Shown piece by piece: positions 16,436 to 60,825 of a stretch of DNA of 64,000 nt. Source of the stretch: a virus (Duplodnaviria; Caudoviricetes); the IMG/VR virus record IMGVR_UViG_3300037255_000025, positions 96,001-160,000 of that record. One strand, 5' to 3'. Position numbers and translations under genes: made by a program. The notes beneath the pieces are model-generated. The model ran no database searches. It saw nothing but the letters and a program-made list of their open reading frames with translations, and was not told the DNA's origin. Numbering within the stretch: position 1 is the stretch's first letter; every line of letters starts with the position of its first letter.

Positions 16436-16768
16436 GTGCCCTGGATCATCAAGCTCACGGAGCTGGCCACGACGCACTGGCCCTCCCCGGGACGGACGGC
16501 GTACCTGCGGGCGTGGCCCCAAGGCCCTGTTGGGTGGCGCGCCGTCCAGATGACGCACATCGTCGCGACCGACGGCGCGGCCGTTTGGGTGCCAGAGCTG
16601 AGCCTGGCGAAGGTGTTCGCCACCGAGGAGATCGCGCGCGCCGCGGCGGACCGATGCCGGTCCAAGATCGGGGAGGCGCGGTTTGTGCGGCTTGAGTTCG
16701 CGGACTGGGCGGGGGAACTGTTGGAGCGAGAAGCCGCCCACGCTGGGGGTAAGGGACCGCGAACGTGA
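16436..16768 (+). CDS. small paralog family member 12
   Basis: MPWIIK; AKVFATEEIA; ADWAGELLEREAA. Confidence 0.7.
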   Translation: MPWIIKLTELATTHWPSPGRTAYLRAWPQGPVGWRAVQMTHIVATDGAAVWVPELSLAKVFATEEIARAAADRCRSKIGEARFVRLEFADWAGELLEREAAHAGGKGPRT

Positions 16769-17988
16769 AGATCCTCCGAGCGTACAAGACCGAGCTGGAC
16801 CCCACGGTCTCCCAGACCGAGCAGCTCCTACAGCACGCCGGTTGCGCTCGCTGGGCTTACAACTGGGGTCTCCGAAGGAAGATCGAGTCCTACGAAGCTA
16901 CGGGCAAGAGTCCGTCCTGGGTGGATCTCAACCGCGAGCTGAACGTGATCAAGAAGCTCCCCAAGGAAGCCGGCGGGGTCCCGTGGATGTACGAGTCCTC
17001 GAAGTGTGCCCCGCAGGAAGCGCTCCGAAACCTTGATCGAGCCTTTGAGGGCTTCTTTCGTCGGTGTAAGAGCGGCTCGAAGCGGAAAGGCTTCCCTCGG
17101 TTCAAGTCTCGTAAGCGGGGCATCGGTAGCTTCAAGTTCAGCGGAACGATTCATGTAGAAGAGCGACGGGTTCAGCTTCCCCGTCTCGGGAAGATCAAGC
17201 TCAAGCAACGCGGGTACCTCCCGACCTCGGGGGTGAAGATCCTCTCAGCTTCGGTCTCGGAGCGAGCGGGGCGGTGGTTCGTTTCGATCCAGGTTGAACA
17301 GGGGCTACCGGATCCCGCACCCAAGCCCACGTCGGTTCTCGGGATCGACGTTGGGATCAAGAATCTCGGGGTCACCAGCGAAGGCGAGGTCTTCTCCAAC
17401 CCGAAGGCGCTCCTGGCAGCGCAGAAGCTTCTCCGAGCGCGTCAGAAGTCTCTCGCGAGAAAGACCAAAGGATCGAACAACAGGAGGAAAACGGCCGCTA
17501 GGGTCGCCCGTCTACACGCTAGGATCTCCAATATCCGGAGGGATTCGATCCACAAGATGACGACTGCGATCACCAAGCAGGCGTCGGTTCTCGTGATCGA
17601 GGATCTCAACGTCCTTGGGATGCTGAGAAACCACTGTCTCGCCCGGTCTCTGTCGGATGCCTCCCTCGGGGAGATCCGCCGGCAGCTCACCTACAAGAGC
17701 AAGTGGCGCGGGGTCGAGCTTCGGGTAGCGGACCGCTTCTATCCAAGCAGCAAGAGGTGCTCGGGGTGTGGAGCGGTCAAGGTCTCGCTCTCGTTGGCCG
17801 AGAGGGTCTACCGATGCGAGCTTTGTGGTCTCGTGATCGATCGAGACCTGAACGCTGCCCTCAACTTGAAAGATTTGGCCGGGAGTTCCCCGGTGCAAGC
17901 CTGTCGCCCTGGAGGCTCTGGTGCTGCTCTTACGAGCGGTACGAAACCTCTGGTTGGGCAGGAACCGAACCGGGAGGCTTCCTCGTGA
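16765..17988 (+). CDS. tnpB: TnpB RNA-guided nuclease (IS607/IS605 type)
   Basis: AYKTELDPT..HAGCARWAYNWGL; GIDVG, IEDL, DRDLNAA RuvC triad intact; CSGC/CELC zinc finger. Confidence 0.93.
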   Translation: MKILRAYKTELDPTVSQTEQLLQHAGCARWAYNWGLRRKIESYEATGKSPSWVDLNRELNVIKKLPKEAGGVPWMYESSKCAPQEALRNLDRAFEGFFRRCKSGSKRKGFPRFKSRKRGIGSFKFSGTIHVEERRVQLPRLGKIKLKQRGYLPTSGVKILSASVSERAGRWFVSIQVEQGLPDPAPKPTSVLGIDVGIKNLGVTSEGEVFSNPKALLAAQKLLRARQKSLARKTKGSNNRRKTAARVARLHARISNIRRDSIHKMTTAITKQASVLVIEDLNVLGMLRNHCLARSLSDASLGEIRRQLTYKSKWRGVELRVADRFYPSSKRCSGCGAVKVSLSLAERVYRCELCGLVIDRDLNAALNLKDLAGSSPVQACRPGGSGAALTSGTKPLVGQEPNREASS

Positions 17989-18029
17989 AGCAAACCGGCC
18001 CGGAGAACGTATTCGGTCCGTTCTTTCAA
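17880..18029 (+). ncRNA. TnpB reRNA (scaffold ending GGAGAACG at 18009, guide ~18010-18029)
   Basis: Overlaps the tnpB 3' end; identity with two other copies stops at GGAGAACG(T). Confidence 0.65.
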
Positions 18030-18512
18030 GTCGTCGACTGCGCGGCCGATGCCCCGCCGGCCGCGGCGGTCTCGCCCATCGACTTCCTCAACGCCCAGCT
18101 CACCCAAGTGACGCAGGAGCTCGACGAGGCGCTGGAGAAGCTCGAACGGATGCCGTGCGGTCACGCGCGGTTCGAGCAGCACCGAGAGATGCACGCGAGC
18201 GCTACGCCGTACTGCACGGTCTGCCGGATCAACCACGACTACCGGGTACTCGAAGAAGAGGAAGCGCGTCTCGACCTAGCGCTCGAGAAGACCCAACAGG
18301 AACTCGATCGTGTCCGCACCGCGCTGCAAGAGGCCTCCGTGGTTGCGACGAAGGCCACCGATAGGCTTCTGGATTCCCTGCCCGGTCGGGTCCTTCGCCC
18401 GTTGCGCGAGGCGGTCGATGCGCTGCGCAAGTCCGGCGACATCGAGGGCGTGATGAACGCTCAGCGCGACATCATCGATGCAGCGCTTGTGCTGTTCCCA
18501 GAAGCAACCTAG
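17985..18512 (+). CDS. hypothetical coiled-coil protein with CxH/CxxC motif
   Basis: MPCGH...YCTVC flanked by heptad repeats; start uncertain. Confidence 0.5.
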   Translation: MKQTGPENVFGPFFQVVDCAADAPPAAAVSPIDFLNAQLTQVTQELDEALEKLERMPCGHARFEQHREMHASATPYCTVCRINHDYRVLEEEEARLDLALEKTQQELDRVRTALQEASVVATKATDRLLDSLPGRVLRPLREAVDALRKSGDIEGVMNAQRDIIDAALVLFPEAT

Positions 18513-19210
18513 CGATCAGCCCGTTCGGCACGGGCGATCATGTCGTCGTTCGCCGCCCTGTGGGCTTCCCTGTCGTGGTGATCTTCCGCGTGCGCGTGAG
18601 TCGACGCCATCAACGTGTTGCTGGCCTTCTTCCACGCGTCCTTCGCGTCGGAGTGGGCTTGGGCTGCGTTCTGGTGAAGCTCTTCGAGGGTTTGGTCACC
18701 GCGAGTGACCCCCGCGTTAGCCAACTTCGTGGCAGCGTTAGCGGCCGCCGACGCGGTCTTCGCCGCGTTTTCCTTCGCCGATGTCTTCTGCGCCGCCACG
18801 TCTAGGGTCTTCGCGTCGCCTTGGTGCGCGGTCGCGGCCGCTTCGTGCGCCGTGGCCGCTTTGTCGTGTTGCTCGACGGCGTTCTCGTGGGCGTATGCCA
18901 TGTCCGGCGTATCTGTCTTCTTCTGCTTCTCATGGTCCGCGGAGGCTTCCTTGTGGGCCCCCGCAGCCTTCAGGTGCGCGGCAGCCGCATCCTTGTGCGC
19001 GGAAGACGTACCCTTGTCCTGGGCCGCGCGCGTCGCGGCCCCAGCTGCTTGTGACAGTTTCGCCGCGGCCCCCGACTTCCCGCCGAGGTCTTCAGTTCCC
19101 GAACCGCGGCGCTCCGCCGCGTTACCCGCGCCGGTAGACGCGAACCGGCCGTGTTCATCACGCTCGGCCTTCGTCACCAGGAAGCTCAACCGCTTTCGAG
19201 TCGTTTCCAT
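18509..19210 (-). CDS. Ala/His-rich helical-repeat protein, candidate virion/head protein
   Basis: VTKAERDEHGRF N-terminus; HxxAAxAH repeats. Confidence 0.6.
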   Translation of the reverse strand: METTRKRLSFLVTKAERDEHGRFASTGAGNAAERRGSGTEDLGGKSGAAAKLSQAAGAATRAAQDKGTSSAHKDAAAAHLKAAGAHKEASADHEKQKKTDTPDMAYAHENAVEQHDKAATAHEAAATAHQGDAKTLDVAAQKTSAKENAAKTASAAANAATKLANAGVTRGDQTLEELHQNAAQAHSDAKDAWKKASNTLMASTHAHAEDHHDREAHRAANDDMIARAERADR

Positions 19211-19238
19211 CGCAGGTACCTTACCTCAAGCGGGTGTT

Positions 19239-20054
19239 TTAACGGAGACCGAGCGCTCGGAGCTTCTTTTCCACAGTTGAGCGGGCACGGCCGAGATCCC
19301 GGGGCCAGTCGACGACCTTGACGATCTCGAGGCGCTCGAGCGCCGCGTTGCGCGCGGGAGTCGGCTCGGGCTCGGCCTTCCAAAGACCGTTGACGCCAAG
19401 CCGGCTTCGCTCCGCCGTTTGCTCCGGGGGCGCCGCGCTGGGCTCCTGGCACTTCTTGACCCGGCCGTCCGCGACGTCATCGATTTGCTCCGCCGGCAGG
19501 ACCTCGTTCCCCGCGTCGGCGTCGACGCCCGCCCGGAGGAACAAACCACGGGTCCGCGCCGACCGGGAGGAACTCGACTTGGCCGTGGGTCCCGCCGCGG
19601 GGGCCCCGGGTTCAACGATCTCGGCCAGCATCCACAGCGGCTTGTTCAGTTCGTGCAGGACGTCATCGAGCACGCGGTACGTGTCGGGATCGCGCTCGCC
19701 CGCGACGCTCGCGCGCGTGCTGCTGAGCCGCCGCACGACCGTCTGGAGCATCGTCCGGATCGCCGCCGCGACCGCGATGCCCGTGAGACCCTCGAACGAC
19801 GGCGTGGGCAAGTCGGTCACGACGGTCTCGGCGACGCCGCCCAGCGCCCGCACGCGCTCCATCACGGCGTCGGCATGCTCGGTCAGCAGCCCCTCGTAGA
19901 GCCGCTCGAGGAACCGATGGAGCGCCAGGAACTGCGGGCCCGTGACGTTCACGTGCGCGTTGTGCGCCGCCAACCCAAGCGCGTTCAGCTCCGAGGCACG
20001 CCGGTTCAGCTCCGCCACGAGAGAAGATCGCTCAACGTCGGGCATCGTCATCAC
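19239..20054 (-). CDS. dps: Dps/ferritin-like protein with C-terminal extension
   Basis: HNAHVNVTGPQFLALHRFLERLYE...ADAVMERVRALGG; K-x-x-WML C-terminal motif. Confidence 0.8.
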   Translation of the reverse strand: MMTMPDVERSSLVAELNRRASELNALGLAAHNAHVNVTGPQFLALHRFLERLYEGLLTEHADAVMERVRALGGVAETVVTDLPTPSFEGLTGIAVAAAIRTMLQTVVRRLSSTRASVAGERDPDTYRVLDDVLHELNKPLWMLAEIVEPGAPAAGPTAKSSSSRSARTRGLFLRAGVDADAGNEVLPAEQIDDVADGRVKKCQEPSAAPPEQTAERSRLGVNGLWKAEPEPTPARNAALERLEIVKVVDWPRDLGRARSTVEKKLRALGLR

Positions 20055-20139
20055 CTTGTACCTCTACCAGCGAGACGCGCGGACCGCGAGTTCTTCGGAC
20101 CAAGAGCTGCGCGCAGTTGAGAGCCAAAGGCGGAAAGAG

Positions 20140-23100
20140 CTAGACGGGCGTTCGCCTAGCCAAACCACTGATGCTCCAACCAGTGTACTGGCCCGCCTTG
20201 ATCTGCGCCCAAATCTCGTCGTCGACCACCCTACAGGCGAGCAACCAAGTCCCCTTCGCGACCTTACGGCCGTTGATGATCAGGTCACAGGGTGCGATGT
20301 AACTTTCTACCGGTCGCAAATGCCCGTTCACGAGGACCTTATGCTGGAGATCGATGTTCCGGTAGTCCTCCATCCAGCGGTGCGCCGACTTGGCGATCTC
20401 ATCGGCGTCGTAAGTGTCGAATTGCGCGTCCACCGACGGGGACGGCTTCAGCACAATTCCAAGGATGTACCGCTGCTCTACTGGAGCCGCGTCGTCGGCT
20501 TTCCCGACCTCGACGATCTCGACCTCGCGCTCGTCGGCCTTACGGACGTGGCGCTCGTTGATGAACCCTGGGTCGCCCGTACCCTCGGCTGCGGGCACGA
20601 CCGGGATGAACGGCCGCGTCATCGAGTCCGCGGAGTCGCTGGCCTTCTGGGCGAGACCTTCGAGTGAGCGGTCTGGCGTCGGCGTGTTGCCCTCGGCGGC
20701 GCGCAACGCGGCGCGCACGTCAGGACCCGCGGCCTTTTGGGCGAACTTCCCGTCGTCCTCGCGTGGCTGGTCACCGCCAGACCCCGCGCCCTTGTCGTCC
20801 GCCTTTGAGCCGGTTCCGTCGGGCTTCGCCACCGCGACCTTCTCGGCGTGAGCCTGGCCCGCGTCGAGTTCTCCCTGGAGGTCGGCCCAAGCCTTCGGGT
20901 CGTCGATGTCCGAGTGGAGCCGGTCGAGCGCGTCGTGGGTCTTCTCGGCTGCGGTCTTGTGACCCTCGGCGGCCTCTTGGTGGCGCTCAACGCCCGCCTT
21001 GTCGCCCGCCTCGGCGGCCGCGACGGCGGCGCGCGCGTGCTCCGCCGCGGCTTGCTCGTGGTCCCCGGCGACCTTTGCGGCCGCGGCGGGGTCGGGCTTC
21101 GCGGCCTTGTCCCCGTTGAGCTTGTCTCCGCCGGGCTTCTTTCCGTCAGCGGCGATCTGCCGCGAGGTCGTGCCCGCGCGATCGGAGGCGTGCTGCGAGA
21201 CGATGTCGAGTGCGTTGGACACGACGTTCAGCGTCGAGTGGAGCAGGCTCCGGGCATCGGTGATCTGTGCGGCCTCGTGCAGCAGGTCTAGCCCATGGCC
21301 CGCGCGGGGTGCGGCTCCGTTGGCCGTGCTACCGCTTCCCGAAGCGCGCGGGGTCTTACCGCCCGAAGCCGCCCGCGGGGCCCGGTCCTCGCCCGACAGG
21401 GGCGCACGGCGGTCGTGTTCGCTCACGCGCGCGCCGGTCGAGCGATGGTGCTCGTCGACGTGGACCGACGCCTTCGCGACCGCGGCCTCGTTGATGTCGT
21501 CGAGGAGCTTGCGCGCGGCAGCCGAGCACGACGCCTTCACGTCCGCCGGCAGGTTTGACTGCGGGATCCGCGCGAGCGCGTTGCGCACGTGGGCCGCGTC
21601 GGGCTTGCCGTCCGGACCCCGGACCGGGAAGTGCCGGAGCGTCTTGGGCGTCGTCTTGCCGTCGACCTTCTCGCCGCCGGACTCGACGTGGAGGAACGCG
21701 GAGTCCGGAAGGTCGTTTACCTCGGCAGAACTCCACTCGGCTTTGCGAACCTCGGCGAGGTCGAGCGCCGCCGCCACTGAGTCCTCAAACGCGTCCGCCA
21801 GGAGCGCCTTCGTGACCTCGGCGGGTTCGAGACCCAACAGGGCCTTCACCATCTGCACCGACGTGGTCTGGATGCACTTCAAAGTCGCCGAGGGCTCGTG
21901 TTCTTCGAAGGCTGCCGCCGCCTTGTCGGCGTCCTCGAAGCCAAAGAGGATTGCGTACTCGGAAAACTGGCTGTCGGCTTTCTGGTGTACGGCCCATTGG
22001 GCGCGAGTATCGTTCGCCTTCGGCCCGAGGAAGACGTCCAGGCCCGTCCCGACATCCCCCGCGATCCCGGGGATGAATCCGTAGTCGAACTTGTAGACCA
22101 AGTCGCCCAATTCACTCTTCTGAACGAACCCCGCGGGGCGGTCGACGTGGACCGGGACGCCTTGGTAGTCGACCTTCTTGATGACGGGACCGCGGGGTGC
22201 GCGTCCCGTCGGAAGTGGCTGGCCGGGGGCGTCGTAGCCCTCGGTGTGCCCCTCCTCGCCGACGACCTTCTGCGATACCGCGTAGCCCACGGGGGTGTCG
22301 CGCCGGACCGTGTAGCCCGCGCCGGGCTCGGCTCCGCCGACGCGCTCGTCAGGACCGGGAACCTGCGGGCTGTTCTTCGCCGCGGGCTCGATGCCGTCGT
22401 CCTCATCCGACGGGAGCTTCGCTCCCTTACCGGGCGCGGGAGGCCGCGGCTTTCCCGGAGCCTTCGGGGTCCTGGCCGCAACGCCGCTCTTCGGCGGCCC
22501 CGCCGTGGTGTCCGCGGGGTCCTCCCCAGGCGGGGCCTTGCCGTCGGGACCCGTCTGGTCCTCGCCCTGTCCGGCGAAGTCGCCCAGGCCCGCGCCTTCG
22601 GCGGAGTCCGTCGGCGCAACGCCACTCGTCAGGTCGTCCCAGTCCTTGTCGGTCATGGACGCCAACGCGTCCTGGATGCCGGCGAGGATCGTGTTGGTGA
22701 ACAGCTCGGTCCCGTCGTCATCGCCGAGGTCGGCCTTGAACGTGACGCCGATGGCACGCTGGGCCGCGTGCTTCGCCAAGTGCTCGACCGTGTGTTCGGC
22801 CGCGTGAGCCGCCAGGTGGTGCGCCAGGGCCTCGGCAAAGTGCGGGACGGCGTGCTCGATCGCGGACCCAACGGCGTGTCCGACGCCGGGCAACGCGGCA
22901 CCAACGGCGGCGAACGCGAGCTTGACCGCGACCTTGAGCGCGACGGTCCGCATCGCGGCCTTCTGCTCTGGCGTGACTTCTTTGCCCGTAACGGCGCTCT
23001 TGAGCCCCTGAGCCGCGGTCTTGACCAATCCGACCTCGTGCATGACCGCGCCCTTGAGCGCCTGGGGCGCGCCCTTGATCTTCTCGACCGCGGACGCCAG

Positions 23101-23631
23101 CGCGCCCTTGACCCCGGCGGCGAGCTTCGCCGCGCCCCCGGCGGCGCGCCACGCCGCGACCTCGGCCTTGTTCGGCTGGGTCAACGGGGTCGCGCGCGGG
23201 TCGGGTGAACCGTTCGGCTTGGCGCCCGCGGGACCCGCGTCGGGCTTGTCCCCAGCCGGCTTGGCGCCCGCGGCCCGACCCTTAGGCTCCTTCGCGGGGT
23301 TCACGTCGGTGTACTGGTTGTGATGCGCCTTGCTGACGTCCCAGTCCTTCAGCAGGCGCGTGAACTTGTCCTCGTGCGCCTGGTCCGGGACCAGCATTCC
23401 ACCCGAGGCCAAGTCGCTCTCGCCCACCGGACCCCCGGCGAGCTTGTGGAGCGACTGGACCGCCGACTTGGCCGCGCGGGCGAGCCGGTCCTGGGCAGCG
23501 CTTTGCGCCATCGCGATCTCGGCCGCGAGGTCACCCCGCAGGCTCCGCACGACCTGGCCCGCCCGGGCCGACAGCGCCGCGGGCGTGATCTCGGATTCCT
23601 CACGCGGCGTGAGCTTCGTCGGCAGGGGCAT
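20140..23631 (-). CDS. multidomain head-maturation protein: inorganic pyrophosphatase-like domain + NDLPDSAF domain + C-terminal XkdF-like serine protease
   Basis: YGFIPG..GD..GLDVFLGP; VNDLPDSAF...RHFP...HVRNALARI; GIVLKP..DAQFD..EIAKSAHRW..IDLQH..VESYIAP..KGTW..W..IK.G..TGWSISG. Confidence 0.8.
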   Translation of the reverse strand: MPLPTKLTPREESEITPAALSARAGQVVRSLRGDLAAEIAMAQSAAQDRLARAAKSAVQSLHKLAGGPVGESDLASGGMLVPDQAHEDKFTRLLKDWDVSKAHHNQYTDVNPAKEPKGRAAGAKPAGDKPDAGPAGAKPNGSPDPRATPLTQPNKAEVAAWRAAGGAAKLAAGVKGALASAVEKIKGAPQALKGAVMHEVGLVKTAAQGLKSAVTGKEVTPEQKAAMRTVALKVAVKLAFAAVGAALPGVGHAVGSAIEHAVPHFAEALAHHLAAHAAEHTVEHLAKHAAQRAIGVTFKADLGDDDGTELFTNTILAGIQDALASMTDKDWDDLTSGVAPTDSAEGAGLGDFAGQGEDQTGPDGKAPPGEDPADTTAGPPKSGVAARTPKAPGKPRPPAPGKGAKLPSDEDDGIEPAAKNSPQVPGPDERVGGAEPGAGYTVRRDTPVGYAVSQKVVGEEGHTEGYDAPGQPLPTGRAPRGPVIKKVDYQGVPVHVDRPAGFVQKSELGDLVYKFDYGFIPGIAGDVGTGLDVFLGPKANDTRAQWAVHQKADSQFSEYAILFGFEDADKAAAAFEEHEPSATLKCIQTTSVQMVKALLGLEPAEVTKALLADAFEDSVAAALDLAEVRKAEWSSAEVNDLPDSAFLHVESGGEKVDGKTTPKTLRHFPVRGPDGKPDAAHVRNALARIPQSNLPADVKASCSAAARKLLDDINEAAVAKASVHVDEHHRSTGARVSEHDRRAPLSGEDRAPRAASGGKTPRASGSGSTANGAAPRAGHGLDLLHEAAQITDARSLLHSTLNVVSNALDIVSQHASDRAGTTSRQIAADGKKPGGDKLNGDKAAKPDPAAAAKVAGDHEQAAAEHARAAVAAAEAGDKAGVERHQEAAEGHKTAAEKTHDALDRLHSDIDDPKAWADLQGELDAGQAHAEKVAVAKPDGTGSKADDKGAGSGGDQPREDDGKFAQKAAGPDVRAALRAAEGNTPTPDRSLEGLAQKASDSADSMTRPFIPVVPAAEGTGDPGFINERHVRKADEREVEIVEVGKADDAAPVEQRYILGIVLKPSPSVDAQFDTYDADEIAKSAHRWMEDYRNIDLQHKVLVNGHLRPVESYIAPCDLIINGRKVAKGTWLLACRVVDDEIWAQIKAGQYTGWSISGLARRTPV

Positions 23632-23715
23632 GGTGGGGCGAAGCCTACATCGGAAGACGCCGCGGCGTCACCTCACCCGCGCTAAGGCGGCGCCGACCGG
23701 GTAAGATGCTTCGCG

Positions 23716-23913
23716 ATGCCCTACCGCCTGACGATCGACCTTTCCGACGCCTACGCGGCGAAGCTCCGGGCGCTCGCGGAGACCCGGAAGCGGTCCCCCG
23801 AACAGTGCATCCTGGACTTCCTCGCGGCCTGTCAGCCCGGCGGGTCGGGTTGGCGTAACCCCGCGGACGACCACCACGAACGGGCAGACGAACCTGAAGG
23901 TGAAAAACCGTGA
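23716..23913 (+). CDS. small RHH/CopG-like DNA-binding protein
   Basis: LTIDLSD...KLRALAETRKRSPEQ; TAAGAT box 8 nt upstream. Confidence 0.6.
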   Translation: MPYRLTIDLSDAYAAKLRALAETRKRSPEQCILDFLAACQPGGSGWRNPADDHHERADEPEGEKP

Positions 23914-24134
23914 CCCCGACGGCGTCTCAGCAGCGCGTGCTCGAGTGTCTACGGGCGACGCCGGGTTGGCTGAGCCGCATGGCGATCGTCCGCGCGACAG
24001 GCTTGGGCCGCGAAGTTGCGGCGGAGGCGCTACACGCCCTACGACGCGCTGGCCTCGTGGAGCGGACGTTCGAGGACAGTGGGATCTGGCGATGGGTGCA
24101 AACGAGCACCCCCGGGGGTAAGGGGCCCGTATGA
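23910..24134 (+). CDS. small winged-HTH protein
   Basis: QQRVLECL..WLSRMAIVRATGL..ALHALRRAGLVER. Confidence 0.65.
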   Translation: MTPTASQQRVLECLRATPGWLSRMAIVRATGLGREVAAEALHALRRAGLVERTFEDSGIWRWVQTSTPGGKGPV

Positions 24135-24370
24135 AGCCCGCCGAAGTAACGATGCCCGCCCCCGCCCGCATGACCAAGATGCTGAACGACGCCGCCTACG
24201 ACGTGGAGCTGGTGGTGCGACGCCGCGCCGAGTCCACTGCGGACCCTGACGCGCTCACGATGCCGTTCGAGATCCCGATCGGCGCCGATGAGCAGCGCAA
24301 GATCCAGGGCCTCATCGCCGCGAGCCAAGAGGGCGACGAGGGCCCAAAGTTCGGACCGCCCGCGGAGTAG
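24131..24370 (+). CDS. hypothetical protein
   Basis: ATGA overlap; GGGGTAAGG upstream. Confidence 0.5.
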   Translation: MKPAEVTMPAPARMTKMLNDAAYDVELVVRRRAESTADPDALTMPFEIPIGADEQRKIQGLIAASQEGDEGPKFGPPAE

Positions 24371-25003
24371 CTACTCCGACGAGAACTTTCCGTGGTCGTC
24401 GCGGTGGACGCCCGGGCCAGTCTTCGGCCTAGGGTTCCCACTCGTCGTTGCCATGTTTTTGAGGCCCTCGGCCACCGCTCGGGACAACGCAACCCCGCGT
24501 GCGCCGCCGTACTGAGCGCGGAACGCCTTCGCGGCCTCGGCGGCGCGCTTTCCCGCTTCCATGTCGATGACGCGCTTGGCCTGGTTCCGTAGGGCCTTCC
24601 AGTCGATCGTTACACCGGAGGCTTTGGCGTACGCGGTCCACTGCCGCGTCGTCTTGTCCTGCTTGGCGCTGTTACAGGACAAGCAGCAAGTCAGCATGTT
24701 CTTCGCGTCGGACCCGGCACCATCAAGGTTGCGCGCCAGGATGTGGTCGATCGTGAGCCCCACGCCCTGCCCAGTCGGGTCCTTCGTGTGGCAGTAGGCG
24801 CACGAGTGCCCATCGCGGGCGTACACGGCGTGGCGCGTGGGCTCATAAATCTTCACCGTTTTGGCGCTCTTGCGGAGGAACGCGAGGGCTTTGCGGGTCG
24901 CGCGGACCGCCTTCATCTCGTGACCCGGCGGCGCCACGGCGTTCTCCGGCTGCGAGACCTCCTGGAGCTTCGCGGGCTCGGTACCTAGAAGGAAGTGGCG
25001 CAC
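24371..25003 (-). CDS. HNH endonuclease with C-terminal RDDHGKF motif
   Basis: RDGHSCAYC..LTIDHIL..NMLTCCLSCNSAK. Confidence 0.85.
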   Translation of the reverse strand: MRHFLLGTEPAKLQEVSQPENAVAPPGHEMKAVRATRKALAFLRKSAKTVKIYEPTRHAVYARDGHSCAYCHTKDPTGQGVGLTIDHILARNLDGAGSDAKNMLTCCLSCNSAKQDKTTRQWTAYAKASGVTIDWKALRNQAKRVIDMEAGKRAAEAAKAFRAQYGGARGVALSRAVAEGLKNMATTSGNPRPKTGPGVHRDDHGKFSSE

Positions 25004-25015
25004 GGTCCGAGAGCG

Positions 25016-25924
25016 TCAGGCCGGGACGTAGCTGACGCGGACCTGGACGGGGTTCTCGCCCAGCATCGCGACCTTGCCGTCGAAGATGTACGGGACGCTG
25101 TAGAATGTGTCCTGGTAGCAGTACACGACCGAGTCGACGTAAACCTCGCGGGGCCACGGTCCCTCGCCGCACATGTTCCCGGTCTCGGGCTTCGGCGGGT
25201 ACCGGAGGTTGAGCGCGGCGCGGATCGCTCGCTCGACGGTGTCGAACGAGGGCCCGACGGCCTTGGCGACGCCGCGCATGTCGAGCGCCTGGTCTTGCTT
25301 GGTGACCTCGCGGACCGGGACCACGCCACCCTCGACCTTCCCGCGGTCGGTCGGCTCGGGCTCCTTGGTCTGCGCCCGGACGTCGTCGCCCGTGCTTCCC
25401 TTCTGAGCCTTGGCCTTCTCGGATTCTTCCTCCTTGGCGATCTTCGCGGCCTTCTCGATGGCATCGTCGCGGCGCGAAGGGTGGCCCTTGAACGCCGCCG
25501 CGAGGTCCTGGGGCCACGCCTTCGCAGAGGCTTCGAGCGCGGCCTTGGCCGCCATCTCGACCTCGGTCGAGTCCCCGCCGTCGTCGTCTTTCTTGGCGGG
25601 CGCGGGCGGCGCCTTCATCTTGCCCACGAGGTCGAGCGCGGCCTTGGCGGCGGCCGAGAGCTTGAGCGGGGTCTGCTCGCCCTGGATGTTGGCGGAGGCG
25701 TTGGGCTTGACCTCGTTGGCGTCCGCGGCGGTCGACGAGTCGTGCGTCGTGGCCCAGGGCATCTCGGTCTTGGCCACCGGGATCAGTTCGTCGCCCCGCC
25801 GGTGCGTGAGGTCCTGTGCCGCCTTCGCGACGGAGCTGTACGTGGCGGTCACCGGGGCAGGCGCGACGCGCTCCCGGAGCCTACGCGCCTTCGCTTCTGC
25901 CGCGACGTCTTCGATGATGGCCAT
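25016..25924 (-). CDS. scaffold-like head assembly protein
   Basis: Ala/Lys-rich with many xxKA motifs; C-terminal beta domain WPREVY..VVY..YSVPY..PVQV..YVP. Confidence 0.55.
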   Translation of the reverse strand: MAIIEDVAAEAKARRLRERVAPAPVTATYSSVAKAAQDLTHRRGDELIPVAKTEMPWATTHDSSTAADANEVKPNASANIQGEQTPLKLSAAAKAALDLVGKMKAPPAPAKKDDDGGDSTEVEMAAKAALEASAKAWPQDLAAAFKGHPSRRDDAIEKAAKIAKEEESEKAKAQKGSTGDDVRAQTKEPEPTDRGKVEGGVVPVREVTKQDQALDMRGVAKAVGPSFDTVERAIRAALNLRYPPKPETGNMCGEGPWPREVYVDSVVYCYQDTFYSVPYIFDGKVAMLGENPVQVRVSYVPA

Positions 25925-26010: not shown

Positions 26011-26439
26011 GACGACCCGTACCGTTACGCCGCCCCCACAGGGAACACACCAAAGAAGGACGGCGCCACGGCGTGGTCGGTCGCCGGGCCCCACGGCGAG
26101 GCCTGGATGCGGAGCCTGTCCCCGATCGACGCCACGAACTTCAACGCGACCGGCGCGATCAACACGGTCCCGACGGGCTACTCGACCTATCCCAGCGCCC
26201 CCGGGATCGACCTCGTGGCGCTGAGCAAAGCGCGCAAGAGCGACTCAAATGGCGATGGCACCGGTGTGGGGCGCCGCGCCTCGGGGTTCCTCGCGGCCGA
26301 CAGCACGGGCGGGACCGTCGTGTTTACGACAGGATCGGGCCAGGTTGAGACCTGGGTCGTGCCGGCGGGCGGTGGGGCCTCGGTCGAGATGACGCACCTC
26401 GCCGCATACAGTGGCACGAACCTGATCGTGTTCTGGTGA
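26005..26439 (+). CDS. putative virion structural protein
   Basis: Gly/Thr-rich small beta protein heading the operon. Confidence 0.5.
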   Translation: MADDPYRYAAPTGNTPKKDGATAWSVAGPHGEAWMRSLSPIDATNFNATGAINTVPTGYSTYPSAPGIDLVALSKARKSDSNGDGTGVGRRASGFLAADSTGGTVVFTTGSGQVETWVVPAGGGASVEMTHLAAYSGTNLIVFW

Positions 26440-30692: not shown

Positions 30693-32663
30693 TCATTCGC
30701 CCGAGGGCGTCACCCACTCAAGTAGCTTGGCCACCGAGACCTGGACCTTCGTGATGTTGTGGCGCTTGAAGTAGGCCGCGAGCGCGTCATCACCGCCTGG
30801 CTCGGCCGCGGCTCCACCGGAGCCCACTGAATTGGGGAGCGGCGCGCCCGCGGGGGCTGTCTTGGGTTCCTGGTCGTCGCCGGGCTTGCTCGCCCCCGGC
30901 GGGGGTCCGCCCGGAGGGGCCGAACCGTCGCCGCCAGGCTCTCCCGGTGCCCCCGGAGCGCCGCCCGCGGGGGGTGTGGCCGCGCCTCCGTCGAGGCCCA
31001 TGATGCCCTGGAGCACGAGAGGAAATGGCGCGTCGGCCCAAGGGGTGTCCAGCTTCTTGAACTCCTTGTTGAGCGCTTCGCTCGCGGCGGCCCGGACCTC
31101 GTTGGTCGTCAGGCCCCCGGCGGTCGCCAACTGGGTCACGAGCGTAACCAACTGCGTCGGGTCCGAGGCGGGCGCGGAGTTGGTCTTGAACGTCCAGTAC
31201 CGGATGCCCATGTCGGCCAACACGCGGCGGTTCATCACGTGGTCGAACTGTTCCCGGAGCGGCTCGAAGACCTGCTGCTCCGCGAACTGGAGCACCGCCT
31301 GGGCCTGGGCCCGGTTGACCTCCTGCGATACGCCGCGGAGCAGCTCAGGCAGCCGGAACTGGCTGCCGATCTTGCTCGTCCCGTTCTTCTCGTACTCCTG
31401 GAACAGGGCATCCTTGAGCTGGGCCTCCGTGAGGGGTCGCAGCTCCACCTTGACGCGCGACGCGCTCGACATCGCCTGGGCCGGGTTGGACTCGGCCTCG
31501 ATCAGCAGGACCGAATGGAAGTTGGCGCGGCCCTGGATGGTCTCCTTGAGATGGTTCTTGATGAGGTCCACGGCCCCCGCCTTGAGCGAGCCGCCGCTCA
31601 CGAGGATGGCCATCGGCGGGATGCACTTCTGGTCGAAGTAGCTGAAGTTGATTTCCTCGGACGCGCGCAGCCCCAACACGTTCATCGTCGCCCCGACCCA
31701 GCGCGGGATCCCGTACGGTCCGATGGGGCTGAAGACCGACCACCACAGGATCTCTGTGGCCTCGACCGCTAGCTCGCCCTCCTTGTCCTTCAACTCCTCG
31801 GGCGACGCATAAAAGTTGCCCGTCTTGGCCGACAAGATGCGGGTGTCGCCGAACTCCTTGAAGTACACGGCGATCAACCCGTTCACCAACTGCACGAACG
31901 TCCTGAAGCGCCGCGGGACCGGTACGGTCGTGTACTTCAACGGGCTCATCTTCTGGGGCGTGTCGACCAGCACGTGCTCGATGTGGATCGGACGCAGCCG
32001 CATCGTCACGGCGTCGATGCGCTCGAATTGCTGGATCTGGCGGTTGCCGTTCCGGATGACCTCCCAGTAGGCGTTGCCCGTCGTTTCCAGCTCCAGCCGG
32101 GTCTGCATCCTCATCTCAACGAACGAGGTCGTGGGGTTGCAGTAGGCGAAGAACCGCTCCAGCGCGAACTTCTCGCGTTTCATCTCCGCCCGCATGGTCT
32201 CAATCGTGGCCGTGACGTGGTCGTCGTCGACCGGGTCGACGCTGTGGTCGTAGATGCGCTGCATCAACAGCGCGTCCCGGACCAGATCGCTGGCGTCGGA
32301 CTTGTCGAGGTCGATGACGGGAACGAGCGTGAACCCGTAGCCGTCGATGTTGGCTGCGTACGCATCGACGCAAGGACGGAGCGCCGAGCTGTTCTCCCAC
32401 GTCCGCACCGTCGCCCACGGGTCGTACCGGGGGATGAGCGCACCAGCTCCTAGGAACCAGTTCGCCTCGGATTCGACAGAAGGCCTGTTATTTCCAGCGG
32501 AAACCACCTCGGTACCGCTGACCGAGATGACGATCGCCTTCTCGACAGGGTCGCCGTTTTGATGGGTCGCTACAACACTTGAAGGCTGATTTTCCGAGGC
32601 CGACTTAACGACCTCTTGGTACTCGCCGGTGAGGGAACGGAGAAGGTCAGGTTCGATAGCCAT
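30693..32663 (-). CDS. phage portal protein (PBSX/XkdE-like)
   Basis: LETTGNAYWEVIRN, YFKEFGD, YGIPRW, N..YF....P, DALFQEY, FRLP.LL.G, NRA.A, QVFEP, LTTNEVR. Confidence 0.9.
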   Translation of the reverse strand: MAIEPDLLRSLTGEYQEVVKSASENQPSSVVATHQNGDPVEKAIVISVSGTEVVSAGNNRPSVESEANWFLGAGALIPRYDPWATVRTWENSSALRPCVDAYAANIDGYGFTLVPVIDLDKSDASDLVRDALLMQRIYDHSVDPVDDDHVTATIETMRAEMKREKFALERFFAYCNPTTSFVEMRMQTRLELETTGNAYWEVIRNGNRQIQQFERIDAVTMRLRPIHIEHVLVDTPQKMSPLKYTTVPVPRRFRTFVQLVNGLIAVYFKEFGDTRILSAKTGNFYASPEELKDKEGELAVEATEILWWSVFSPIGPYGIPRWVGATMNVLGLRASEEINFSYFDQKCIPPMAILVSGGSLKAGAVDLIKNHLKETIQGRANFHSVLLIEAESNPAQAMSSASRVKVELRPLTEAQLKDALFQEYEKNGTSKIGSQFRLPELLRGVSQEVNRAQAQAVLQFAEQQVFEPLREQFDHVMNRRVLADMGIRYWTFKTNSAPASDPTQLVTLVTQLATAGGLTTNEVRAAASEALNKEFKKLDTPWADAPFPLVLQGIMGLDGGAATPPAGGAPGAPGEPGGDGSAPPGGPPPGASKPGDDQEPKTAPAGAPLPNSVGSGGAAAEPGGDDALAAYFKRHNITKVQVSVAKLLEWVTPSGE

Positions 32664-49783: not shown

Positions 49784-50615
49784 GGAGCCTCCGCAGGACC
49801 TCGGCGGCGGCCCACCAAGCAAGCACACCGCCCACGCGGCCCCCGCCGGTCGCGACCACGATACCGGGCGACGCCTCTCGCACGGTGGGCTCGGGCAGGA
49901 CAGGGCGCATCCCCCAGATTGAACCACGATCCTCAAGCGTGCCCACAGCTTCTTGGAGCGGACCCAACGCCCGCACGCGCATTTTCTCTGTGTAGTCGTG
50001 CGCGCGCGATGGATCGCGCTCCAAAGTCTCGCCAAGCCGCACGACACCCAACCCCCACGAACGCGCCGCGTAGGCAAAGTACGACGTCACCGGGACCAGC
50101 ATCGTCCGTGCGGGCGTTCGCTCCGCCTTGAACAAGAGACCGCGCCCGCCGAGCGCCTCGACGCCCACGAGGGCAAGCCCGCTTGCGTTCAGAATCTGGT
50201 CCGTCCAGACGCCCGCGGCGAGCACAACAAGCCCGCCCTCGACAACGTCGCCCCCCTGGAGGTGTACGCGGCCGCGCTCGACGCGCGTGACCTTCCCCGC
50301 AGCCCGCTCTGCGTAGAGCGCCAAAACGTCCTCGGGCCAGAACGTCGCCCAGTCCAACCGTGCCTTGCGTCCGACGACATCGGCACCGTCGAAGTCAAAA
50401 ACAGCCCCGTGTTGCCGTCCGAGCGACTCGGCTGCGCGCGCTCGCTCGGCCCAAAGGCCCTTGTACCAAGAGCGCGCGTAATAGCCGCTCGCCGCTCGTG
50501 AGGCCGCGCTGGGCTCCGCCGAGTCGATCAAGGTAACAGACGCGCCTGCGTCGGCCGCGACCCGCGCGATAGCGGTCCCCCAGAAGCCGCCGCCCACCAC
50601 GACGAGGTCCTTCAA
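49776..50615 (-). CDS. FAD-dependent oxidoreductase (DAO/glycine oxidase-like)
   Basis: VVVGGGFWG, ASRAASG, VVLAAGVW, WGMRP, ATGG. Confidence 0.85.
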   Translation of the reverse strand: MKDLVVVGGGFWGTAIARVAADAGASVTLIDSAEPSAASRAASGYYARSWYKGLWAERARAAESLGRQHGAVFDFDGADVVGRKARLDWATFWPEDVLALYAERAAGKVTRVERGRVHLQGGDVVEGGLVVLAAGVWTDQILNASGLALVGVEALGGRGLLFKAERTPARTMLVPVTSYFAYAARSWGLGVVRLGETLERDPSRAHDYTEKMRVRALGPLQEAVGTLEDRGSIWGMRPVLPEPTVREASPGIVVATGGGRVGGVLAWWAAAEVLRRLRG

Positions 50616-57516: not shown

Positions 57517-60500
57517 TTAGTCGAAGTTGATGCCGCCTGCCTTCATCGCCTTGAACAGGCTCTCGCGGTCTTGGTACCCGTAGGTCTTACCCTTGTACTG
57601 GACATCGTGGTCCTCCTTGGGCAGCACCAGGCCGTTGTTGTGTCCCGGCCCCGCGATCATCTCGCGCTCGTGCTTGTAGGTTGAGGAGAACGTGCCGTCG
57701 TCCAGGACCTGGTCGAAGGCGGTGTGGTCGATCGGGCACTTCCACCGGAGCAACACACCATTATGGCCGGCGAAGAAGTCCTTGGAGTGCTTCTCTCCCA
57801 TCGACCAGCTCGCCAGCTCCGCGTGTTTCTTGATCGTGACGGTGCTGACGGTGTCGTCCTTCCAAGCCTTGGCCATCTCGATGGCGGTCTCGGGCTCGTA
57901 CTGCATGCCCCGCGTGAGGTCGAAATGCGTTGGGGCCTGGGCGTCCTTCACGCCCACATGCTCCAGCATCGCCTTCCACCGCGCCGCCCGCGTCTCGACC
58001 GCCGCCGCCATCGTGGCCTTGGTGTTCGGCAAGACCGGCTGCCGAGGCGCGCCCTTCTCGGTCACGTCCGCGAACGCGGCGTAAACACGTCCGTGGGCAC
58101 CGCCGTCGGAGTGGCCCTGCGCGGTCCACTCCTTAACGATGCTCTTGATCGCGTCGTGGGTCGCGCTTGAGAGCCCGACCCCCTTGTTGACCGCGGCGAT
58201 GGCTTTGTTTTGCTTCGTGGAGCTGACCGGTAGCTCGGCGAGCGCCGCGGCAACCTTGTCGTGGGCACCGCCGTCGATCGCGTTCTTCAGGCTCAAGACC
58301 TTCTCGGGCGGCGCGACCGGCTTGGGCTTCGACGCCTCGTACGCGTCGCTCGCCTCCTTCAAGAGGCGCCCGCGGGTCTCCAGCATCTCGACCACCTTGG
58401 CGTGGTCCTTGGGCGCGAGGTCCGGGATGCGGTCCTGGACGTACTTGGTCCAGCCGCCCGGCGCGGCCGCGAGCTTCGTGATGCGCTCGACCTGTTGCCG
58501 GAAGCCCGGGGCCTCGAACGCGTTCTTGACGCCCGCGGCCTCGAGCACCTTCGCGTACTGGGGCGCGACGGACTTGTCGAAGCTGCTCGTCAGCTCTCCG
58601 ACCTCGAGCTTCCCGGGCTTGTCACCGCCCTGGGCCTTGAACAGCAACACGCCGCCGTTGTCGACGCGCGCGATCGAGCCGTCCGGGAGCTTGAGGACGT
58701 TGTCGCCGCTATACCCGATGACGTCCCGGTTCGCCAAGAAGACGTCGGCGGCGAACCCCTGGGCGACCTCGCGCGCGTCGCCCTTCGATGGCGACAGCCC
58801 CAGCGGCAAGCCCCCCGGGAGGATCGTCGACGCGTACAGCGTCTTGCCCTCGTGCTGGAAGACTTGGCTCTCCGGCGCCTTCACGCCCAGGTCGTTATAA
58901 AGCTGGTTGGCGAGGTGCTCGACGTGGGCCTGCGACGGGTTCGCATACTCCTTGATGTAGCGCTGGACGCCGTCGGTCCCGAGCCAGAAGCCGCTCTTGC
59001 CCAGGGCGTTGCTCCCGGCGGCGCCGCCGGTCTTGGTACCCAGGACGGTCGTGCCGACGCTCTTGACGGGCGGGGCGTAGTCCCGGCTGAGCAGATCGGG
59101 CTGCTTCGCCAGCTTGGGCCCCAGCTCCGCGAGGATCTTCTTGTCGCGGTCCATGTTGAGAAGCCCCGCGGCGTCCTTCAGCGTCGTGAGCTTGACCGCT
59201 TGGGTCTCGGCCATGCCGCCGGGCGGCGCCTTCAGGCCGTCCCGAGGGTCACCGCCGACCCGCTGGGCGATGTAGTAGCGGGTCGTGCTGACGCTGCCCT
59301 TGTAGTCGCCCATGAGGCCGACGATCCGCACCTTCAGCCCGCTCTCCTCGTGGACCTCCTTGAGCGCGTTCTGCTGCGGCGTCAGGCTCTCGCCTGCGTC
59401 CATCTTGCCCTTGGGCCATGTGTTCTGCGCACCACCGAAGTGGCCCTTGGGCTCGTAGATCCACATGCGCCCGTCAGGCTCCATGACGATGCAGCCGGTC
59501 GAGATGTGCGACCCGGTCGGCATCGGTCCCTCGCCGACCTCAACGTCCTGGGTGTGCTTCCAGAAGCCCCCCGCCTCGGAGTTCAACGGCACGCCGTTCA
59601 GCGTCGTCGGCGCTGGCGGTCCGAGAGCGATGCCATCCGCGGAGACGCCCTTGTCCCCCCAGGCGCACAGTGCCTTCGGGTCCCCCAACGGGTTCGGGGG
59701 CTCCGGGGGCGACACCACGGGATCGGGCGGCGCCGGGGCTGCGACCTTCGCCGCATCGGCCTCGGCCCGGAGCGCCGCCTTGATGGCGGCCCCGTTGGCC
59801 TCGTTGTGCGCGTTGGCGGCGTTCACCAAGGCGTCGACGCCCGCGAGCCCGTGCTTGCCGTTCGTGGCGGACTCGGTCTTGATCGCGTTGACCAGCGCCT
59901 CGCGCGCGGTCTCGTGCGCGTCGGCGGCGGCCCGGTAGACCTCCGGGGTCTTCTCCAACTCCGCCTTGGCGGACAGTCTGTTGGCGTCGCGGCTGGCGTT
60001 GATCGCCGCGACCATCGCGACCTCATGGGCCGCGTGTTCCGGCTTGATGTCGCCCGCGCCCTTGACCAGGTAGTTCTTGCCCGCCCGGGCGTGAAAGTCC
60101 TTGGCCCGCTGGGCCGCGGCCGCGGTCATCTCGAGCTTCTTGAGCGCCTTGGCGTGCTGCTCCGGGGGCAGCGTCTTGAGCGTGGCGTCGATCTTCTTCA
60201 GCAGCGCCTCGTGGGCCGCGGCCGTGATGACCTTGCCGGCGACGACCTTGCCCAGCGCTTCGGCGTTCTGCGCGGCCTTCTTGGCCCCGGCGATGAACTT
60301 GCCGTGCTCGTCGCGGATGACCGTAGATTCGTCGAAGTCGCCCGCCTTCTCGACCGCGAAGCTCAGCTGCACCGGGGCCCACGCGGCGCGCAACGCGGCC
60401 TTGGTAACCTCGGGGTCAAGCGGGGGTGCGTTCGGTACGGGTGCGCCAAGTACACCGCGAGCGCGCGCCAGCGCCTTGAACAACCGGTCACCGGACGCCT

Positions 60501-60825
60501 CCGGGGGCGCCGCCTCGTGGACCGACCTGGACGCCGTGTTGTGCGCCGCGGTCTTCTCGAAGCGAGCCCCGACGAGCGCCCACGCAGCAGCCCCCCGCGC
60601 GTTCTCGGCTACGCCGGGCCCGTCGTCCGGTTTAGCCTCGGCGGGTGCCTGCTGGGCCTTCGCGACCGTTTGGAACGCCTGCGTGACCGCGGCCCACACG
60701 GTGTCGCTCAGGGCCTTCTCGACCACCGCGCGGGCCGCCGGGTCCGCCGCGCTCAACGCCTCCTTGGCCTGTGCCAACGCGGCGGCGATCTTGGTCTGGG
60801 CTTCGCTGGCGTCCATCTCGCGCAC
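57517..60825 (-). CDS. polyvalent protein: helical N-terminus + Nudix hydrolase + PI3/4K/HipA-like kinase + ADP-ribosyltransferase-like domain
   Basis: PKGKMDAGES..NALKEVHEESGL Nudix box; GSN..YIK..E.LA..LY...G..P, D.FLANRDVIG..DN..RVDNGG.L kinase; TRG..SWS..EREM ART triad. Confidence 0.75.
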   Translation of the reverse strand: MREMDASEAQTKIAAALAQAKEALSAADPAARAVVEKALSDTVWAAVTQAFQTVAKAQQAPAEAKPDDGPGVAENARGAAAWALVGARFEKTAAHNTASRSVHEAAPPEASGDRLFKALARARGVLGAPVPNAPPLDPEVTKAALRAAWAPVQLSFAVEKAGDFDESTVIRDEHGKFIAGAKKAAQNAEALGKVVAGKVITAAAHEALLKKIDATLKTLPPEQHAKALKKLEMTAAAAQRAKDFHARAGKNYLVKGAGDIKPEHAAHEVAMVAAINASRDANRLSAKAELEKTPEVYRAAADAHETAREALVNAIKTESATNGKHGLAGVDALVNAANAHNEANGAAIKAALRAEADAAKVAAPAPPDPVVSPPEPPNPLGDPKALCAWGDKGVSADGIALGPPAPTTLNGVPLNSEAGGFWKHTQDVEVGEGPMPTGSHISTGCIVMEPDGRMWIYEPKGHFGGAQNTWPKGKMDAGESLTPQQNALKEVHEESGLKVRIVGLMGDYKGSVSTTRYYIAQRVGGDPRDGLKAPPGGMAETQAVKLTTLKDAAGLLNMDRDKKILAELGPKLAKQPDLLSRDYAPPVKSVGTTVLGTKTGGAAGSNALGKSGFWLGTDGVQRYIKEYANPSQAHVEHLANQLYNDLGVKAPESQVFQHEGKTLYASTILPGGLPLGLSPSKGDAREVAQGFAADVFLANRDVIGYSGDNVLKLPDGSIARVDNGGVLLFKAQGGDKPGKLEVGELTSSFDKSVAPQYAKVLEAAGVKNAFEAPGFRQQVERITKLAAAPGGWTKYVQDRIPDLAPKDHAKVVEMLETRGRLLKEASDAYEASKPKPVAPPEKVLSLKNAIDGGAHDKVAAALAELPVSSTKQNKAIAAVNKGVGLSSATHDAIKSIVKEWTAQGHSDGGAHGRVYAAFADVTEKGAPRQPVLPNTKATMAAAVETRAARWKAMLEHVGVKDAQAPTHFDLTRGMQYEPETAIEMAKAWKDDTVSTVTIKKHAELASWSMGEKHSKDFFAGHNGVLLRWKCPIDHTAFDQVLDDGTFSSTYKHEREMIAGPGHNNGLVLPKEDHDVQYKGKTYGYQDRESLFKAMKAGGINFD

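Follow-up and report, generated by a model that had tools for sequence, protein, structure and literature searches.

The DNA analysed here comprises bases 96001-160000 of the 169,748-bp tailed-virus record IMGVR_UViG_3300037255_000025 (67.5% G+C; record rated complete). This whole stretch of 64,000 nucleotides is called the window, and positions refer to it unless marked as genome positions. The assembly is circular, with a 210-bp overlap between the contig ends that lies within a repeated element. The phage is uncultured, and its region at 18509-25924 is a head-assembly block, as the original prediction had assumed and as both the domains and the gene order in relatives bear out. On the minus strand, this block encodes a 302-amino-acid (aa) protein, a 210-aa HNH endonuclease, a 1163-aa polyprotein that joins an InPase domain to an XkdF-type prohead protease, a 271-aa Dps and a 233-aa protein, in this order (Table 1). 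Two short motifs recur in these and other proteins of the phage: motif A, hydrophobic-x-K-[AS], which is a probable cut site of the XkdF protease, and motif B, R[DE][DE]xG[KR]F, which appears to belong to a widespread header peptide of head-associated or virion-delivered phage proteins.

Table 1. Features of the head-assembly block and of the other genes discussed (window positions unless stated otherwise; a slash marks the putative cut)
Feature	Position	Strand	Description
IS605-family TnpB element adjoining the 233-aa gene	16765..18011 (genome 112765-114011)	+	PF01385, PF07282, PF12323
233-aa protein	18509..19210	-	11-residue leader, VTKA (residues 12-15), RDEHGRF (17-23), Ala/His/Lys-rich helical body
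Motif B copy 1, RDEHGRF	19142-19162	-	233-aa protein residues 17-23, 2 residues past VTK/A
Dps, 271 aa	19239..20054	-	Ferritin-like domain, residues 14-148 (PF00210, 64.9 bits vs. 24.5); 120-residue C-terminal tail
Dps tail	19293..19385	-	LWK/A (residues 224-227), WPRDL (250-254), then basic helix
1163-aa polyvalent head protein	20140..23631	-	Helical N-terminal region, InPase, DUF6582-like, helical Ala/His/Lys region, motif B, XkdF
XkdF-type prohead serine protease (Peptidase_S78_2)	20152..20478	-	Residues 1052-1160; PF14550, 94.3 bits vs. 24; phrog_3017 head maturation protease, 8e-35
Motif B copy 2, QP-REDDGKF-A	20743-20763	-	Polyprotein residue 957, stretch with no structure predicted, between helical region and protease
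DUF6582-like domain	21484..21741	-	Residues ~631-716; flanked by VRK/A (628) and VAK/A (718); 53% identical to the P0002 domain
InPase domain	21844..22176	-	Residues 486-596; PF18823, 39.2 bits vs. 26.8 cut-off
HNH endonuclease, 210 aa	24371..25003	-	PF01844, 27.9 bits; ends in motif B
Motif B copy 3, RDDHGKF	24383-24403	-	HNH residue 201, 3 residues from the C-terminus
302-aa head-module protein	25016..25924	-	Three [VI]xKA sites; WPQDL at residues 137-141 (25502-25516)
Portal protein	30693..32663	-	PF04860, 69.8 bits; phrog_12; VVKS and VEKA within the first 43 residues
1102-aa protein	57517..60825	-	Five [VL]xKA sites N-terminally, header, helical region, Nudix (440-552; PF00293), kinase-like, ART-like C-terminus
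Motif B copy 4, RDEHGKF	60295-60315	-	1102-aa protein residue 171
Extended header, DFDESTVI-RDEHGKF	60295..60336	-	1102-aa protein; 2 residues past VEK/A
Motif A sites, 1163-aa protein			VSKA 99, TFKA 297, VTKA 606, VRKA 628, VAKA 718, VRKA 1029, VGKA 1042
Motif A sites, 302-aa protein			VAKA 32, IEKA 156, VAKA 219
Motif A sites, portal			VVKS 18, VEKA 40
Motif A sites, Dps, HNH and 233-aa protein			Dps LWKA 224; HNH LRKS 43; 233-aa protein VTKA 12
Motif A sites, 1102-aa protein			VEKA 35, VAKA 54, LFKA 115, VTKA 140, VEKA 158
N-termini of scaffold-position proteins	Genome ~1460-1530; L050 13139-13210; L174 10727-10850

In relatives with 91-97% identity, genes for the 302-aa protein, HNH, InPase-XkdF, Dps, a 258-aa protein, a 397-aa scaffold and a 319-aa capsid protein follow one another on one strand, with three reverse genes between the 258-aa and scaffold genes. 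In the phage studied here, the scaffold (genome ~1460-2653) and capsid protein (genome 2712-3671) genes lie outside the window and on the other strand. The genome holds three copies of an IS605-family element (88-99% identical), each encoding a 407-aa TnpB (OrfB_IS605 and Cas12f1-like TNB): the one adjoining the 233-aa gene, a second at genome 159687-160958 (window 63687-64958; minus strand) and a third at genome 168749-169748 plus 1-481, across the contig junction. Inverted copies flank a segment of ~55 kb, and its inversion parts the protease, Dps and 233-aa genes from those for the scaffold and capsid protein, which are adjacent in relatives that lack the TnpB element. The XkdF gene lies between the portal and scaffold/capsid genes in four relatives (L172, L173, L050, and L174), an arrangement that is split here by the IS-framed inversion. 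No megablast match to the region was found among GenBank phages.

The 1163-aa polyprotein carries the protease domain at its C-terminus. A search for loci related to the whole protein returned a single distant InPase match, and its homologues share the protease and DUF6582-like domains only. Pfam and PHROGs gave nothing for the scaffolds, for the N-terminal 480 residues of the polyprotein or for its middle parts, and AlphaFold2 predictions run without alignments for the two large proteins (1163 and 1102 aa) had mean predicted local distance difference test scores of 40.9 and 41.2, which yield rough helix/coil maps only. With InPase (PF18823) and XkdF (PF14550) in one chain, the polyprotein has the multi-domain make-up of a polyvalent protein, and the head-gene context with portal-terminase packaging is likewise present (portal, PF04860; contiguous head module in the relatives). 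Neither large protein had a Pfam match to a zincin-like metallopeptidase; a serine protease domain stands in its place. Because it is fused to the protease, the InPase is very probably inside the prohead, and we accept it on this ground as a likely packaged cargo, as had been proposed. Two further observations concern the same gene. Its last 113 residues (20140-20478, the protease domain) are 68% identical to those of a close relative, compared with 95% for the first 1050, so that the gene looks like an internal recombination mosaic. In addition, residues ~220-290 (22750-23000, minus strand) form a long hydrophobic, Gly/Ala- and His-rich helical stretch, which could be membrane-active as in ejection proteins.

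Every instance of motif A listed in the original prediction was found. The background proteome consisted of 197 proteins from calls based on the G+C content of third codon positions (GC3) that were made for this analysis. The 8 head-associated proteins (4,370 aa), a set partly selected beforehand for carrying the motif, contained VxKA 16 times, compared with 15 times for the other 189 proteins (44,609 aa). Shuffling within 25-residue windows gave an expectation of 3.2 +/- 1.7 for the head set, and 0 of 1000 shuffles reached 16. When V, K, A and a wildcard were arranged in all 18 ways, the pattern ranked first in this set, with 9 occurrences of the runner-up, and it was directional (16 VxKA, 0 VxAK, and 5 AxKV). 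Given these counts, a compositional origin of VxKA was considered and discarded. Outside the head set, there was no excess of [VIL]xK[AS] (48 observed and 48.5 expected); the comparison with background that had been suggested at the outset thus places motif A above expectation in the head proteins only. When all 197 proteins were ranked by [VIL]xK[AS] enrichment, the scaffold came first, followed by the 1102-aa protein and the polyprotein. The scaffold lies outside the window and was not among the proteins picked originally.

The prediction that the XkdF protease cuts between Lys and Ala is well supported, since the scaffold tops this unbiased ranking and since capsid protein N-termini keep [IL]-x-K-A. 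In three XkdF phages, the latter read AIEK/A, LLAK/A and LLEK/A, ~12-16 residues from the start, and the portals of these phages have similar K/A sites within their first 40 residues. In L050, observed and expected counts of motif A were 6 and 0.9 in a 423-aa head protein, 9 and 2.8 in the polyprotein and 4 and 0.9 in the capsid protein, with 0-1 occurrences in tail genes; the scaffold of L174 had 7 against 1.6 expected. The enrichment in both phages was restricted to head genes and was strongest in scaffold-position proteins. Within the polyprotein, the sites at residues 606, 628, 718, and 1029 separate its InPase, DUF6582-like, helical and protease parts from one another, and P0002, a 1014-aa XkdF polyprotein of another phage with 53% identity over two domains, has LEK/A and AAK/A at the aligned borders of its DUF6582-like domain. 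Site-by-site conservation could be followed only in the protease and DUF6582-like domains and in overly close relatives; in the latter, three sites differ in the middle residue of motif A but not in V/I, K or A; in the 302-aa protein, the changes at two sites fall on this P2 residue. The K-A site proposed for the prohead protease therefore stands by inference from head-specific enrichment, domain borders and capsid N-termini, and cleavage itself is likewise putative. A literature search on XkdF cleavage specificity returned nothing relevant, and to our knowledge neither the specificity nor the catalytic residues of the family have been characterised. In three XkdF phages, the scaffold-position proteins also start alike, with V-D-[RN]-[AP]-A-[NI]-x-x-x-F-[LV]-[VI]-V-K (Table 1), a shared motif that may be a protease-docking strand; the leader of the 233-aa protein, L-S-F-L-V-T-K-A, resembles its end.

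Motif B had exactly four matches in the six-frame translation of the 169,748-bp genome, all of them in coding frames, which confirms the four sites named originally, each within a real gene. Chance would give 0.01 matches among the called proteins (Poisson P ~4e-10) and 0.08 across the six frames, and four scrambled orders of the motif gave 0 matches. A recent duplication as the origin of the copies is excluded by unrelated DNA flanks and synonymous codon differences. In all four copies, the core R-D-x-x-G-[KR]-F, compared with the header consensus from 90 and 418 sites, lies within a low-complexity linker, and none is followed by a run of Gly. The copy in the 1102-aa protein keeps F-D-E-S-x-x-x-R-D-E-H-G-K-F, with V-I replacing H-P, and is the sole local copy with F-D-E, while that in the polyprotein has the Q-P-R form seen in scaffold-type copies. 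The four local copies are probably diverged members of a widespread 14-residue header, [FW]xExxHPRDxxG[KR]F, to which a Gly-rich linker is joined. A putative K/A cut precedes motif B in two of the four and, therefore, motif B would stay on the module rather than being removed. K-A or K-D stands 0-2 residues ahead of the extended header in 3/3 cases of this lineage. An Ala/His/Lys-rich helical region of scaffold-like appearance adjoins three of the lineage copies, namely those of the 233-aa and 1102-aa proteins and the one at the C-terminus of P0002.

Across phages, the exact RDEHGKF pattern occurred as coding sequence in 45 IMG/VR loci, compared with 3 for the reversed peptide. Among these was a ligase-like family (L004-L007, L013, L021, and ~10 more IMG/VR loci) of ~620-660 aa with a K-W-D-G motif, which holds G-RDEHGKF-HMFP inside an apparent folded domain. 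The remaining loci had [HQR]-P-R-D-E-H-G-K-F in low-complexity linkers. In 5/5 loci checked, the protein whose gene is flanked by those for the portal and the capsid (scaffold) had the peptide close to its N-terminus; S78 protease, MuF, TopoIB-Nudix, ART and portal-protease fusions had it at the junctions of their domains. HPRDxxGKF was present in at least 119 loci, in long open reading frames (ORFs) at nearly all of the 93 sites among the matches listed, and the consensus was A-[ED]-[FW]-x-E-x-x-H-P-R-D-x-x-G-K-F-[TAS]-x-G-G-G. Portal fusions made up 22 of the 70 header carriers among the matches listed, the others including Nudix, DUF2213, TopoIB, LPD3, Zeta, ART, InPase, MuF, PI3/PI4-kinase-like, GNAT, RelA/SpoT and XkdF domains; these families match the repertoire of phage polyvalent proteins. 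A profile of the header retrieved 2,867 protein clusters among 1.84 billion representatives. The best matches carried 2-10 copies per protein with a median spacing of 265 residues, and many standalone proteins carried it at the start (position 6-30). No Pfam model covers the header, a profile search of solved structures gave only a chance match (cyclin-Y, E 0.9), and literature searches with spellings of the motif returned no paper describing it. A tblastn search of GenBank phages with a 35-residue header had no match, which probably reflects a short query of low complexity. The header is thus apparently undescribed yet very widespread, and its distribution supports RDxxG[KR]F as a mark of head-associated or virion-delivered proteins. 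To this extent, the original prediction is supported; a capsid-targeting role is only plausible, and release, processing or ejection would fit equally well, because many carriers are fused to portals and because the header is far more conserved than any head protein that it might bind.

The 1102-aa protein, with a Nudix domain (PF00293) and kinase-like and ART-like leads, also has the multi-domain make-up of a polyvalent protein. The structure-atlas leads were HipA/PI3K-like (0.91-0.95) and ART-like (0.85-0.89), and R 971, S-x-S 1006 and E-x-E 1052 can be seen in the sequence; the kinase and ART assignments are only leads. An ortholog with 56% identity has the header unchanged between diverged flanks, and its N-terminal extension holds a second, canonical header copy, DWDESAHPRGEGGRF, directly past K-A. 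The proposal of a packaged Nudix/kinase/ART protein can be kept in so far as the Nudix protein is likely packaged, with its other two parts as leads. A Tet/JBP-type dioxygenase gene (51939-52988, minus strand) lies a few kb from the 1102-aa gene, and the contig of the ortholog (L169, 14460-21353) has Tet_JBP, ADDT, DAO and glycosyltransferase genes beside it, which suggests a DNA hypermodification cluster.

From the motifs, their statistics, the domain content and the association with head proteins in several phages, we infer cleavage, docking and packaging of each enzyme as parts of one scheme, in which XkdF cutting at K/A is combined with docking by the header on head-delivered modules. This is the best overall explanation, and we give it a probability of about 0.5. 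The phage would build its capsid with an XkdF-type prohead protease that forms the C-terminal domain of the 1163-aa polyvalent protein, and the InPase would be carried into the prohead along with it. Hydrophobic-x-Lys/Ala or Ser would be the most likely cut site. The portal, the capsid protein and the 233-aa protein would each lose a short N-terminal peptide; the scaffold would be cut into pieces, as would the long N-terminal region of the 1102-aa protein, and the domains of the polyprotein would be parted. The header precedes the modules of phage proteins that become part of the head or travel inside it, and a cut at K-A/K-D would leave it as the new N-terminus of the released module because of the spacing of 0-2 residues noted above, in agreement with its place at the start of many standalone proteins. 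Its most likely function would be that of a docking signal, for incorporation or for later ejection.

Several findings weigh against this scheme. Of the four unrelated proteins with motif B, one has it N-terminally, two have it internally and one has it C-terminally, a looser placement than that of a T4-type leader. The motif is absent from Dps and from the version of the 233-aa gene in a close relative, and ~15 of the 45 exact RDEHGKF loci belong to the unrelated ligase-like family, so the bare heptapeptide is not fully specific. The portal-fused carriers would need no docking tag, and a peptide that stays so conserved while the portal and capsid families around it are unrelated is unlikely to have a fast-evolving head protein for a partner. 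The neighbours of the 1102-aa gene and of its ortholog are genes for DNA modification rather than for the head. Regarding motif A, VRKA has become VRKK at one site in a 93% relative, and folded domains contain several of the matches (503 in InPase; 1042 and 1079 in XkdF), so that not all of them can be cut.

The Dps and HNH proteins are where the scheme is most open to a competing account, in which only the protease-fused domains are packaged, HNH and Dps are cytoplasmic helpers (for terminase/DNA packaging and for DNA protection/iron, respectively) and the tags serve other ends or none. We regard this account as possible, though the less probable of the two. Terminases are well known to have HNH partners, the usual role of an HNH gene within a head module is in DNA packaging, and the head module of L050 has an untagged HNH between MuF and the protease; the injected nuclease of the original prediction is accordingly doubtful. 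The HNH of this phage, on the other hand, has its motif B on an added C-terminal tail. For Dps, the helper account can point to the missing motif B; the case for Dps as cargo is built on LWKA and WPRDL in its tail, which suggest packaging. Ordinary Dps proteins have 155-163 aa, and the C-terminal tail was found only in the 91-93% relatives; it is thus unique to the lineage, with a K/A site just ahead of WPRDL. The pattern WPxD[LM] had three six-frame matches in the genome, in the scaffold C-terminus (genome ~2600), the Dps tail (19293-19307) and the 302-aa protein, and two in L050 (9822 and 14186), in the scaffold C-terminus and the 423-aa head protein. It was noticed post hoc, and ~2 six-frame matches are expected by chance (estimated from residue frequencies), but 3/3 fall in head proteins, which account for ~1.3% of six-frame residues, and 2/2 do likewise in L050. 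WPxD[LM] with the basic helix is a candidate capsid-binding end common to the scaffold and putative cargo, and its presence suggests that Dps borrows this end from the scaffold. Neither the 233-aa nor the 302-aa protein belongs to a Pfam or PHROG family, and no relationship of the 302-aa protein to the 423-aa protein of L050 was detectable beyond WPxDLA. Compared with its counterpart in the 91-97% relatives (L172, 10827-11603), the 233-aa gene keeps the leader and VxKA, with the rest 28% identical and the counterpart differing by 25 residues in length (the L172 version being the longer); this points to a swapped cassette.

If the header does dock modules, it might be a portable, near-universal address label of tailed phages that sends any protein module into the head, or through the portal on its way out, paired with the protease site of each lineage; we offer this extension tentatively. 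Alternatively, the header could be a release or processing signal, self-cleaved or cut by a conserved protease, that frees modules in the head or in the infected cell. The spacing of the copies is what such a signal would show, with one header per module and 2-10 per protein at domain-sized intervals, and an effector fused to a portal, as in the portal-fused carriers, must be freed to leave the head. A flexible Gly-rich linker after the header and its very high conservation across unrelated phages would also fit intrinsic chemistry or a conserved enzyme. Standalone proteins that start with the header, however, have nothing to be freed from, and the header is also present in scaffolds of podovirus-like contigs and at the extreme C-termini of HNH and P0002; moreover, we know of no autoproteolytic motif that matches it. 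We consider release unlikely compared with docking. Least probable of all is the absence of any signalling, with VxKA as a by-product of Ala/Lys-rich amphipathic helices and RDxxGKF as a beta-turn element or recombination joint: the carriers are Ala/Lys-rich, D-x-x-G is a common turn, a single-sequence model draws an R171-F177 bridge (low confidence), and modules shuffle, the 233-aa body and the last 113 protease residues having been replaced in close relatives, but the directional enrichment of VxKA survives local shuffling, diverged phages have retained sites at the aligned borders of domains and at the N-termini of capsid proteins, and the header is kept at the protein level despite different codons and unrelated DNA flanks and is restricted to head-associated and effector proteins.

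The preferred scheme of K/A cutting and header docking resembles several known systems in part. In encapsulins, a short terminal cargo-loading peptide brings unrelated enzymes, ferritin-like ones included, into an HK97-fold shell; the consensus of the header is different, and its binding to a capsid is only putative. In domain content, there is a likeness to polyvalent proteins, which combine InPase, Nudix, ART-like and kinase-like domains in one polypeptide, occur with portal-terminase genes and are predicted to be packaged and injected (Iyer et al. 2017, J Bacteriol; PMC5512222). The InPase family PF18823 was defined in the same work, which describes neither the header motif nor a K/A site and in which the word 'linker' is absent (PMC5512222). 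The processing enzyme here differs in being an XkdF prohead protease fused in cis, rather than a zincin-like metallopeptidase. That packaged polyvalent effectors are trimmed by the head protease is, as a general idea, already established. In T4, the unrelated internal proteins IPI-III and Alt share a short targeting peptide adjoining the protease site, these capsid-targeting sequences end at the L/I-x-E site of gp21, and the scaffold is fragmented (PMC9026906). Alt is an ART, as the C-terminus of the 1102-aa protein may also be (PMC9026906). The T4 protease is of the S77 type and cuts at L/I-x-E/, whereas the protease here is XkdF with a hydrophobic-x-K/A or S site, and there is no sequence likeness; the T4 tag stands ahead of the cut and is removed, while the header here would stand past the cut, be retained and vary in position. 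SPN3US gp245 and phiKZ gp175 cut many head and ejection propeptides, that of the portal included, at multiple 3-residue motifs, and the multiply cut propeptides of SPN3US are a precedent for repeated cleavage of head proteins (PMC10052503). Those cuts, past Glu in A/S/G-x-E, are proven by mass spectrometry, whereas the sites here are predicted from sequence. Finally, MuF-fused polymorphic toxins place exchangeable effector modules on a head-assembly protein (Zhang et al. 2012, PMC3482391), and MuF fusions are found among the header carriers. The block of the window had no detectable MuF domain, and the carrier there is the protease or none.

Two ORFs outside these systems were also observed. 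At 26436-27743 (plus strand), in an opposite-strand block between the portal and 302-aa genes, a 435-aa ORF encodes a signal of the lipoprotein type, its lipobox ending in Cys; it overlaps other ORFs and was not picked by GC3-based gene calling. A 1035-aa ORF at 46970-50077 (minus strand) has a LAGLIDADG/homing-endonuclease segment at residues ~439-506 and is likely a large gene with an intein or inserted endonuclease.

The proteins injected with phage DNA are mostly unknown beyond a few model phages. This locus adds a candidate rule for cleavage by XkdF proteases, a family not yet characterised, along with a diverged copy of a very widespread unnamed header next to that candidate cleavage site, and a Dps with the C-terminal motif of the scaffold, which would be an unusual cargo. 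If the motifs do act as a sequence label, anti-defence and take-over enzymes could be listed straight from genomes. If, in addition, the header is an address label, thousands of unannotated phage proteins could become readable as injected cargo from their sequences, and the label might be used to load chosen proteins into phage heads.

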